From the UHGV virus genome UHGV-1658972: a stretch of DNA of 14,153 nt. The stretch is one strand, 5' to 3'. The DNA is from a virus. The position numbers were made by a program. Positions 3,001-6,000 of the stretch are shown piece after piece (the stretch's first letter is position 1; each line of letters begins with the position of its first letter).

Positions 3001-6000
3001 TTTGCGATATTTCACGCTTATCATTCAGAGTCAGAATCATCATCTTTCTCCTGTTCTTTGTGCTGATTGAGCATTTTGTTCATCTGACGAATGAATTCTT
3101 CGTCTGACCAGTTATCTGTAAAACTCATTTCCTGCGATACCACGGAAGGTTGATAGCTGATTTCATCGCTTTATTTGCTTCAAGCCACATTTTTGAATCA
3201 CCAATAAATCTGGCTATTACTGCTTTGTTTTGTGCCGCACGAAGCATCTGGTGATTAATGGCTATTTCATTGCGCATAATAAGACCTCAACTCTTTTCCA
3301 TCCGTCACGTAATTTACGGGTGATTCGTTCAAGTAAAGATTCATTTAATTGGAAGGCACCCATGCGAGCGCCTCCCGCGATTGCGTAAATCATGGGTGGT
3401 TCCTTATGTTGGTTTTATTAGTAGGTTATTTTTGTTGCGAATACTTCGCCTTTTACGATGGCTGTTATGATATTTTTAGCAACATCTTCTGATGCGCCAA
3501 CCTTGATAAGGTCAGCAAGTATTTTGTTATTTACTTCTTTTCGGTGAGCTTTATCCTTTGCTCTACGCTCTTCTTCGTCCTTGATTCTTTTTTCTTCTGC
3601 TATTCTGGCTTGCTCTTTTGCTTCAGCCTCGCGCCGGATTCGTTCAGCCTCCTCCTGTGCTTTTCTGCGTTCTGCTTCAATTGCCGCCTGCTTTTCTCTT
3701 TCAGCTCGTTCTGCTGCCTCTTTTGCTTCGCGCAGTGCTCGTTGCTCGGCTTCAATGCGTTCACGCTCTGCACGTTCCGCTGCGGCCTTAGCTTCTGCTT
3801 CTCGCCTTGCTGCTGCTTCAATTTCGGCTTTTGCCTTTGCTTCGGCTTCTGCTCTGGCTTTCTCTTCAGCTTCTCTTTTTAAGCGTTCTTCATGCTCTCG
3901 CTTTTCCTGCTCCGCTTTGAGTCTTGCCTCTTCTCTTTGGCGGTCAAATTCGCGATCCATCAAAATAGCTATTTCATGGTCAGACTCAATTTGCTTTGCG
4001 AGAGCTTCAGCTGCTGCCTTAGCTTCTTCTTCGGCTTTAATCCGCGCCTGTTCTTCCTCATAATCAGTAAGAGGCTGGCGTGCCTTGGCTTTCAGCTCAT
4101 CAAGGCGATCACGCACTGTCTTGCGGTTAGCATCAATTAGCTTTGGAATTTCCTTCAGTTCAGCAACAAGGTCTTTGCCAAGACCATCGAGATATGTTTT
4201 CGTCTGCGCAACTTTATACGCCAGAGAAGCGATCTCCTTTCTGCCCTTTGCCGTTGTGATATCAGGCACAAAGGACATAACTTCACGTTCAACCTTTTGA
4301 AGGATTTCTTCAATCTGGTCGGCAGACTGAAATACAGTCATTGCATTTGCTTTTTCAATAACAACTAAATCTGTTACTTCACTCATATATCCTCCATCAA
4401 AAAAATTGCCCTCACACTGGAGGGCAAAGAAGATTTCCAATAATCAGAACAAGTCGGCTCCTGTTTAGTTACGAGCGACATTGCTCAGTGTATTCACTCG
4501 TTGGAATGAATACACAGTGCAGTGTTTATTCTGTTGTTTATGCCAAAAGAAGGCCGACTATGCGGCCTGTGATGTTAGATTTACTTTCATTTTTGAACGG
4601 CAGCTACAATTATGATGGAATGTACAAAACCACTTTCCAGTTCATAGAAGTGGATGATGGCATAAAATAATCCCACGACTCGTTAGCTACGAGCTCTTTA
4701 TTAACTGTGGTGGCAGCAATTTCGGCATCGCCTTTATTATTAAAAATGTCGTTCGAATACTGACATTTTCCATCTGCATGCACATATAAAATATCATATG
4801 TCTCTGTATCGTAATAACCACTTATGTCTCTGATAACAATTCCTGGCTTCAATGATTTAATTTTCTCGTCCATATCTCACCTCAAATAAGTGGTTTGCTG
4901 CGAAAATAAATCCGCTTAAGTTACCTGTTATTTATCCCACCAAGTTCCGTATCTATCTATCCAGTTACACCAATCATCGACACTCCATTTTGCTGTGTCG
5001 CATTTTGGCAAATGGCATGAATATCTACCTTCTTTGTAAAGTCGGCGTTTGACTTTCTTGAGCATGGCTCACCTCAATCGTAATAAGCTGGAATTGATTT
5101 TCCGCGTTGTTTCTGGCGGCCTGAGCAAGTCACACCCATTTCACTGCGTGGCTTGCGGTAGTAAATACGGTTCTGTTTACGCTCGACTTCTTCTGCCTTC
5201 TTGCAGCGAAGGCTTCCGAGTGATGCTGCTTTATCTGCTCTGACGCAACCAGAGAGCTTTAGCGCAATTTTTCGCGCCAGTCGCTGCTCTTGCATTGCCT
5301 GTTCACGTTGAGCCTGTCTGCGTGCTCTGCGGCGATTTCTGGCGTTATCGTCAGCCAGATATGTAATGACTACTGCCATGTTGACCTCCGATGATTGACT
5401 TTGGCGATTGGATGGCCGGTGCTGAACTCCGGCTTATTTACAGGCACCTTGTTCTCCCGAAGCTCTCCTGCGCGCATCAGCCTGCGCATTCATCCAATCC
5501 CAAAGCCAACTACTCTTTGGTTCCCGCATTTCGGCGGGACAATTCCATCAATGTTAAAGAGCCTGCCAATCTGTTCCGTTTGGCTACCAGCGTCCTGCTG
5601 ATGGCTTAAATTTAAGATCTCTTTAATTAATGGTCAAGAGTATTTTTGAAGAAAACTTAAATTTTCTTTCGTAACTTAAGTTTGGCTTTGATTTTTAAAG
5701 GAAATAAAAAAAGGGGCGAATGCCCCCTTATGGAAGGTTTGCTAGTTTTGCATCGACAACTACGCCGATGATTTTGCAGTTCCCGTTGATCTCGATCATC
5801 GGATATTGTGGGTTAAGTGGTTTTAGAAACTTCCTGCCTGCATCAATAACTAACTTCTTGAAAGTTGCCTCGTTTTCTCCTTCGAGCTTTGCAACTACCA
5901 GTTTCCCGTTACGCGGCTCTACTTCAGGATCGACGAGTATTATCATTCCTTCAGGGATACTGAGACCGGCCGGAGCCGTCATTGAGTCTCCCTTCACGTC

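Follow-up and report, generated by a model that had tools for sequence, protein, structure and literature searches.

What do two small genes do between the antiterminator gene N and the first transcription terminator of a lambdoid prophage? The question is raised by the UHGV virus genome UHGV-1658972, a stretch of 14,153 nucleotides (hereafter the window), in which an AT-rich interval at positions 4440-5070 carries open reading frames (ORFs) of 45 and 87 amino acids (aa), here called orf45 and orf87. An earlier note on this DNA had read the interval as a moron-like island with two unrecognisable genes, candidates for anti-defence or superinfection exclusion. We moderately favour a different reading, in which the two genes are promoter-proximal cargo of a hypervariable region of the early-left (pL) operon, swapped at conserved junctions, expressed immediate-early together with N and playing a part in host takeover or counter-defence.

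The locus and its two genes

Both ORFs are present as described, directly after N and, like all features below unless stated otherwise, on the minus strand. The N gene (5074..5379) encodes 101 aa in an allele that ends in ...IPAYYD*; its product matches phrog_271, 'anti-termination protein N-like' (E 5e-36) and, weakly, the Pfam family N_peptide, and the homologous genes of phages N7, HF4s and SfI carry the annotation N. The Trp- and Cys-rich orf45 (five Trp, three Cys) occupies 4928..5065 directly downstream of N, and orf87 (phrog_33140; WP_001580125.1) occupies 4610..4873. Positions 3400-5400 match the chromosomes of E. coli MS1657 and of one other poultry isolate at 100% identity. The lambdoid prophage of MS1657 has an early-left operon on the minus strand in the order LexA-like CI repressor, N, 87-aa hypothetical gene, 322-aa coiled-coil protein, cIII, kil and recT, with cro, cII, O, P and the nin genes on the opposite strand. 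Both flanks of the interval share 97-98% identity with Shigella phage Sf6, whose annotations at the matching positions are gene 37 (N-like), gene 36, gene 35 (ral), gene 34, 'tL2A', 'bsq4' and gene 33. As a whole the window represents an E. coli prophage of the lambdoid, P22/Sf6-like type. Within its pL operon the interval forms that part of the hypervariable 'Ral' accessory region which lies nearest the promoter.

That neither product belongs to a recognisable family, as the earlier note had it, does not apply to orf45. Its product belongs to the Pfam family DUF5484 (PF17583; 44.5 bits against a gathering cutoff of 27, residues 5-42 on positions 3-41 of the 43-residue model), also matches phrog_1871, and is 50% identical over 40 aa to gp55.4 of phage T4 (BLASTP, E 4e-15). 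Its orthologue in Sf6 is gene 36, and identity to the Sf6-type protein is 96%. A tblastn search found relatives in 1027 phage records. T-even-like phages of Escherichia, Klebsiella, Shigella and Yersinia make up most of these, while the lambdoid records with more than 80% identity number only about ten. The protein of the window shares with DUF5484, T4 gp55.4 and Sf6 gene 36 a length of 43-45 aa and the core K-R-x-L-x-K-x-G-x-Y ... PK-x-DT-x-KWSV-x-DW; unlike the T-even clade, the lambdoid clade is more basic (the isoelectric point, pI, of the orf45 product is 9.4) and has three Cys. A zinc-binding site formed by these residues (C-x4-C...C) was considered and dropped: the Cys are absent from the T4 clade, which makes a conserved metal site unlikely. 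Scans against NCBIfam and PADLOC gave no match, and no functional study of DUF5484, gp55.4, phrog_33140 or the protein accessions was found in the literature. A T2 transcriptome study places gp55.4 among the early-to-middle transcripts. In MS1657 the Prokaryotic Genome Annotation Pipeline (PGAP) leaves the stretch from N to the 87-aa gene without annotation (L002 10475-10674, corresponding to 4874-5073 of the window), and the DUF5484 ORF is absent from the RefSeq annotation.

For orf87 the earlier statement stands, in that scans of Pfam, NCBIfam and PADLOC returned no match. It is nevertheless a genuine, if rare, protein family. The product aligns over its full length with phrog_33140 (E 1.2e-48; residues 1-87 on positions 1-88 of the 88-residue profile), which is placed in the PHROG category 'unknown function', and its DNA occurs in 8 of 5426 complete E. 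coli genomes. A HMMER search of 1.84 billion cluster representatives gave 15 matches with E <=0.001, of which about eight are full-length relatives of 83-117 aa. Matches to long repeat proteins (P0015, P0020, P0023) were rejected as homologues, a motif of 20-25 residues being counted there repeatedly. Seven aligned relatives are 31-93% identical and have 14 invariant residues in common. The orf87 product is acidic (pI 4.6), as are all family members tested (pI 4.2-4.75).

The genomic context of the family was compared over 31 loci, taken from IMG/VR, Logan and NCBI together with two E. coli prophages, many of them near-identical. At most of these loci the gene shares its strand with a CI-like repressor gene or N, which precedes it, and is followed by cIII, kil, the coiled-coil gene or recT; even relatives of only 41-48% identity keep this position, and a few loci are without a recognisable neighbour. 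In the prophages of E. coli E1 and EC28 and in several IMG/VR contigs orf87 follows N directly, with a gap of 8 nt. The virulent Klebsiella phage KB57, a Mydovirus, has its homologue within an array of small hypothetical genes.

Structure prediction, which the earlier note had proposed for both proteins, yielded confident AlphaFold2 models with a mean predicted local distance difference test score (pLDDT) of 84 each. The orf87 model has the order beta-beta-beta-alpha-alpha-beta and a predicted template modelling score (pTM) of 0.74; that of orf45 is a small alpha-beta-alpha-beta arrangement (pTM 0.54). Neither has structural relatives: the fold search returned no neighbour for orf45, and for orf87 no significant match in the PDB and, in BFVD, only the homologue of phage KB57. 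A sequence search of solved structures with the family profiles gave nothing below E = 0.89.

These data bear on the possibility that one ORF, or even both, has no function and is a chance ORF or a decaying remnant within a spacer prone to recombination. Such a view could draw on the missing PGAP call for orf45, on truncated or frameshifted copies of orf87 (P0002-P0004; L022), and on the few codon differences between close alleles, which comprise 2-4 synonymous and 2-4 non-synonymous changes. However, orf45 falls into a curated Pfam family that is kept in more than 1000 phages of two very different lifestyles, the orf87 relatives at 31-48% identity retain length, the 14 invariant residues and position, and the models of both proteins are confident. 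Both are real genes, and we regard a non-functional origin as scarcely credible.

Junctions and base composition

The two genes begin alike: each has the Shine-Dalgarno (SD) sequence GAGGTGA, followed after 3 nt by ATG (cgatTGAGGTGAgccATG and ttatTTGAGGTGAgatATG). The earlier note had drawn attention to this shared signal, which is indeed present, but it is a property of a conserved junction where N ends and not of the two genes themselves. At the N/orf45 junction (5066..5077) TTGAGGTGAgcc is followed by ATG, with 8 nt between the N stop and the orf45 start. The SD of orf45 and the TGA stop codon of N share nucleotides (TTGAGGTGAgccATG), and because of this overlap translation of orf45 is probably coupled to that of N.

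The second copy of the signal, in front of orf87, lies in a relic of a lambda-type N 3' end (...SKPLI*) at 4874..4901. We recognise it as a relic because the 54-nt spacer upstream of orf87 contains 25 nt, GCAGCAAACCACTTATTTGAGGTGA, that are identical to the real N 3' end in the prophages of E. coli E1 and EC28, where orf87 follows directly. Its core is a linker of 16 nt, CACTTATTTGAGGTGA, at 4892..4877. Across the fetched loci (L001, L010, L011 and many of L012-L121) the same linker plus ATG stands in front of at least eight unrelated ORFs, namely a 28-aa acidic ORF before ral, orf87, a 156-aa ORF, a 107-aa orf184-like ORF, an ORF of 83/91 aa, a gene-34-like ORF and two others; it is on this ground that we attribute the shared SD to a conserved junction. 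From its sequence, the linker looks like a short-homology junction for cassette exchange that preserves translational coupling.

The swapped segment itself can be delimited closely. In blastn comparisons with Sf6, TO6 and HF4s the left conserved flank reaches as far as 4567-4569, and on the right conservation resumes at 4866 (at 5068 in the case of HF4s, which is without orf45). The breakpoints 4569/4570 and 4865/4866 enclose a mosaic module at 4570..4865, which replaces 747 bp of Sf6 with the 28-aa ORF, ral and gene 34. In our reading the cargo was exchanged here by recombination, the promoter-side junction being the 16-25 nt of N 3' end plus SD, and the distal one the terminator and boundary block. 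This arrangement resembles the boundary sequences of lambdoid mosaics such as bsq4 of Sf6, since the left junction of the module abuts a conserved block with bsq4 and tL2A and the right one is a short conserved linker common to unrelated cargos; unlike those, the promoter-side linker is readable as the 3' end of N together with the SD of the gene behind it, and a duplicate of it survives as a relic.

Two further observations concern these junctions. In Sf6 an unannotated ORF of 28 highly acidic aa (MEEEFEEFEEHPQDVMEQYQDYPYD...) starts from the linker ATG (L001 ~2365-2451, minus strand) and overlaps the start of ral in another frame; it occurs in 14 loci. The alleles of N are likewise mosaic (5074-5160 compared with L010 and L011): that of the window ends in ...GKSIPAYYD*, and alleles that are otherwise 93% identical end in ...KLGSKPLI*, with a breakpoint near 5110.

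Windowed base composition bears out the description of the interval as AT-richer than its flanks. Its GC content is 0.388, while the window as a whole has 0.468 and the left arm 0.44; orf87 has 0.36 and the swapped module ~0.36, against 0.507 (0.51 rounded) for N and 0.46 for the coiled-coil gene downstream. Just 1.8% of 631-bp windows are equally AT-rich, and the global GC minimum falls within the interval. The dip is modest, other stretches of the left arm reaching down to 0.39-0.40.

Transcription signals

Promoters and terminators were predicted by a simple consensus scan, which is blind to Rho-dependent terminators and to weak or non-sigma-70 promoters. A pL-like early-left promoter (TTGACC, 17 nt, TAAATT) lies at 5609..5637 between cI and N, and the sigma-70-like scan of the minus strand over 4200-5800 gives no site other than this one (5637..5609). 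Downstream of it, at 5522..5562, the sequence reads as a boxA-like GCTCTTTAACA (5562..5552) and a boxB-like hairpin UCCCGC-CGAAAU-GCGGGA (5539..5522; dG -10.5 kcal/mol, z -2.7), which we take, from what is known of the lambda nut sites, to be a putative nutL.

The minus-strand scan also recovered the weak and the strong hairpin with U-tract that the earlier note had placed behind the two genes. The weak one, at 4551..4568 with the U-tract to ~4543, is the first terminator after pL and has a 6-bp stem and the tail TCTTTTGG (dG -9.7, z -1.9). The strong one, at 4399..4427 (4427..4406 in the scan), has an 8-bp stem and the tail TTTTTTT (dG -13.2, z -3.6) and is a homologue of 'tL2A' of Sf6. Neither extends to the right of 4569, and both fall within the flank that is kept in Sf6, TO6, HF4s and more than 300 phages whatever the cargo. 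They are tL2-type terminators of the backbone and not the island's own.

The scan predicts no intrinsic terminator between pL and 4568. For this reason N, orf45 and orf87 together would form an immediate-early pL transcript, made before N-mediated read-through of the terminator cluster, as lambda biology suggests. By the same analogy CI would repress this transcript in the lysogen, and it would be produced within the first minutes of infection or induction.

These signals bear directly on the moron reading of the interval, according to which the genes form a lysogenic-conversion cassette that is expressed from the prophage and confers superinfection exclusion or another fitness trait. The moron concept was reportedly defined by Hendrix, Juhala and colleagues. 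As in morons of lambdoid phages, an extra, AT-richer segment stands between genes that are adjacent in related phages, with a terminator downstream, and some of the alternative cargos of this slot are annotated as superinfection exclusion proteins. Unlike in morons, pL is the only predicted promoter, with no promoter-like site on the minus strand between it and the ORFs, the terminators belong to the conserved backbone, and the genes form part of the pL operon and, as judged from the overlap of the orf45 SD with the N stop, probably coupled to N; in other prophages orf87 follows N directly. Of three features by which a moron was judged here, namely a promoter of its own, a terminator of its own and a deviating composition, only the last was found.

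The proteins themselves point in the same direction. The known Sie, Imm and Cor proteins are membrane proteins, but the products of orf45 and orf87 are both hydrophilic (grand average of hydropathy -0.38 and -1.14), and no hydrophobic stretch was seen when the two sequences were read by eye, with no transmembrane or signal-peptide predictor applied. Homologues of both occur in virulent phages, and PADLOC gave no match. The superinfection-exclusion role suggested earlier is accordingly improbable for these two proteins under pL control, and we regard a moron or conversion cassette as very unlikely.

The Ral region and its cargo

The suggestion that this slot accumulates accessory genes is well supported. 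Fifty-four IMG/VR loci, chosen only for having the coiled-coil gene and a recognisable N, served as control slots. Between N and the coiled-coil gene they hold 51 distinct sequences, with lengths of ~390-2370 bp. Mechanical ORF calling gave 62 families there; 9 of the loci have ral, 10 have DUF5484 and 2 have orf87. In Sf6, N7, SfI and many E. coli prophages ral occupies the slot, and the cargos of other prophages include ral with DUF7167, ral with a 121-aa ORF and a 'superinfection exclusion protein', an XkdD/Y8K6-like gene with DUF2528, a single membrane protein and a 156-aa ORF, besides many hypothetical genes.

The slot shares conserved flanks and highly variable small cargo genes with the 'Ral' accessory regions of Silas et al. 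(bioRxiv 10.1101/2023.04.06.535777), which rank 2nd, 11th and 14th among enterobacteriophage accessory regions. In the same study orf184 triggers the gop-beta-cII abortive-infection system. A 107-aa family, 'MEALVVERSED...' (MEALVVERSEDGYWTHPEY...), found in the slot of other loci (among L042-L121), matches V6, E7, R8, E10 and D11 of the orf184 model file and appears, from this agreement, to be orf184. The accessory region contains genes with a tested role in counter-defence or as defence triggers, namely ral and orf184, and this speaks for our reading of the pair.

Given this position, orf87 might be expected to stand in for Ral. By sequence comparison orf87 is not a Ral homologue: there is no Pfam match to Ral (PF11058) at E up to 1, and hhalign gives a homology probability of 0.7%. 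It is like Ral of lambda, P22 and Sf6 in slot, strand, operon, size class (66 vs 87 aa) and predicted early expression from pL; it differs in that Ral has a Cys-rich motif, which orf87 does not, and in being acidic, with a predicted beta-beta-beta-alpha-alpha-beta fold.

A functional substitute of unrelated fold, that is, an immediate-early anti-restriction protein against type I or other restriction-modification systems, would agree with several observations. The gene fills the exact segment that ral occupies in Sf6, N7, SfI and many E. coli prophages, ral is present in 0 of the 31 orf87 loci, and the protein is acidic, predicted to be made first after entry, and has a relative in a virulent Klebsiella phage. 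The slot, however, houses dozens of unrelated families, most of them with no link to restriction, and the hhalign and Pfam results give no support. Mutual exclusivity of ral and orf87 was dropped as evidence, the background of ral being just 9 of the 54 control slots (~17%) and the loci not being independent, so that the exclusivity is not significant. We consider such a substitution unlikely.

Possible functions

If the genes are cargo of the pL operon, what may their products do? Lambda encodes Ral, cIII, Kil and Gam in this operon, all of them small proteins that bind host proteins. We suggest that both products are most likely binders of this kind, which would help host takeover or counter defence. 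Both proteins have relatives in virulent phages, orf45 in the T-even phages and orf87 in KB57, and on this ground we argue for a function in the lytic cycle. Small size, hydrophilicity, relatives in virulent phages and pL control together favour early host takeover or anti-defence over superinfection exclusion.

Both genes could in particular be takeover factors unrelated to immunity, directed at a host protease, cell division, a nuclease, a topoisomerase or a transcription factor, in the manner of cIII, Kil, Gam or T4 55.1 and 55.2. They share operon and size class with cIII and kil, and the basic, Trp-rich orf45 product is compatible with binding of nucleic acid or protein. In T4 the neighbouring gene 55.2 is reported to code for an inhibitor of E. 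coli topoisomerase I (PMC4396842). Nothing specific points to this alternative, however, and a hypervariable slot together with the low prevalence of orf87 (8/5426) is more typical of arms-race genes, which leaves it possible but rather unlikely.

An anti-defence role of any kind, which we would place by position in analogy to the other cargo of the region, can be held tentatively, somewhat on the doubtful side. A bolder proposal is that orf87 founds a new family of immediate-early anti-defence proteins with a new small alpha/beta fold, which in a minority of lambdoid prophages would replace Ral directly behind N and which would occur in virulent Klebsiella Mydovirus phages as well, with orf45 as a second, far commoner early host-modulating peptide that T-even and lambdoid phages share; as a whole we consider it doubtful.

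Several points weigh against the reading of the genes as early host-takeover or counter-defence cargo. Neither protein matches a known anti-defence or defence family in Pfam, NCBIfam or PADLOC, or a solved or viral predicted fold, and motif searches of the supplementary tables of Silas et al. did not find orf45 or orf87 among the 200 accessory genes tested there. That ral is missing from each of the 31 loci with orf87 is uninformative, given its low frequency in the controls and the many near-identical loci. The net charge of the acidic family is only -4 to -12, so that DNA mimicry is not indicated. Finally, the immediate-early timing depends on the consensus scan, with its blindness to Rho-dependent terminators and to weak or non-sigma-70 promoters.

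Neighbouring features

The 217 nt after orf87 (4396-4612) are strongly structured (minimum free energy -62.8 kcal/mol, z -4.2) and conserved in more than 300 phages. Between the two terminators, at 4478..4525, an imperfect inverted repeat of 22 nt forms a 12-bp hairpin inside the region annotated as bsq4 in Sf6. An Rfam scan of 4350-5700 gave no RNA family, even at E up to 1. On the plus strand, ORFs of 60 aa (4488-4670) and, overlapping it, 44 aa (4481-4615) were treated as chance ORFs; both overlap the conserved terminator block, and the 60-aa ORF has no match in Pfam or PHROG.

The conserved downstream flank contains the gene of the 322-aa coiled-coil protein (3418..4386), of the Sf6 gene 33 type, and then cIII and kil. 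Its true start is the ATG at 4386, behind GGAGGATAT; the mechanically called ORF runs to 4440 through the terminator. The database names of this Glu/Lys/Ala-rich protein disagree ('TolA', 'coiled-coil domain-containing' and, in HF4s, 'antitoxin, similar to phi80 Agt'). On the promoter side cI lies at 5728-6378. The right arm of the prophage has adjacent genes for tRNA-Asn (GTT; 13214-13288) and tRNA-Thr (TGT; 13294-13369) on the plus strand.

Implications

A pair of cargo genes made up of one member of a widespread DUF and one member of a rare orphan family is typical of a known accessory hot spot and will not surprise the specialist. The conserved junction of N 3' end and SD shows how cargo is swapped while the expression signals are kept. 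The pair is worth including in an anti-defence screen. Should either protein inhibit a host defence or enzyme, it would provide a new small-protein tool and possibly reveal a new host target; if this were true of orf45, it would give a function to a DUF that is present in more than 1000 T-even and lambdoid genomes.

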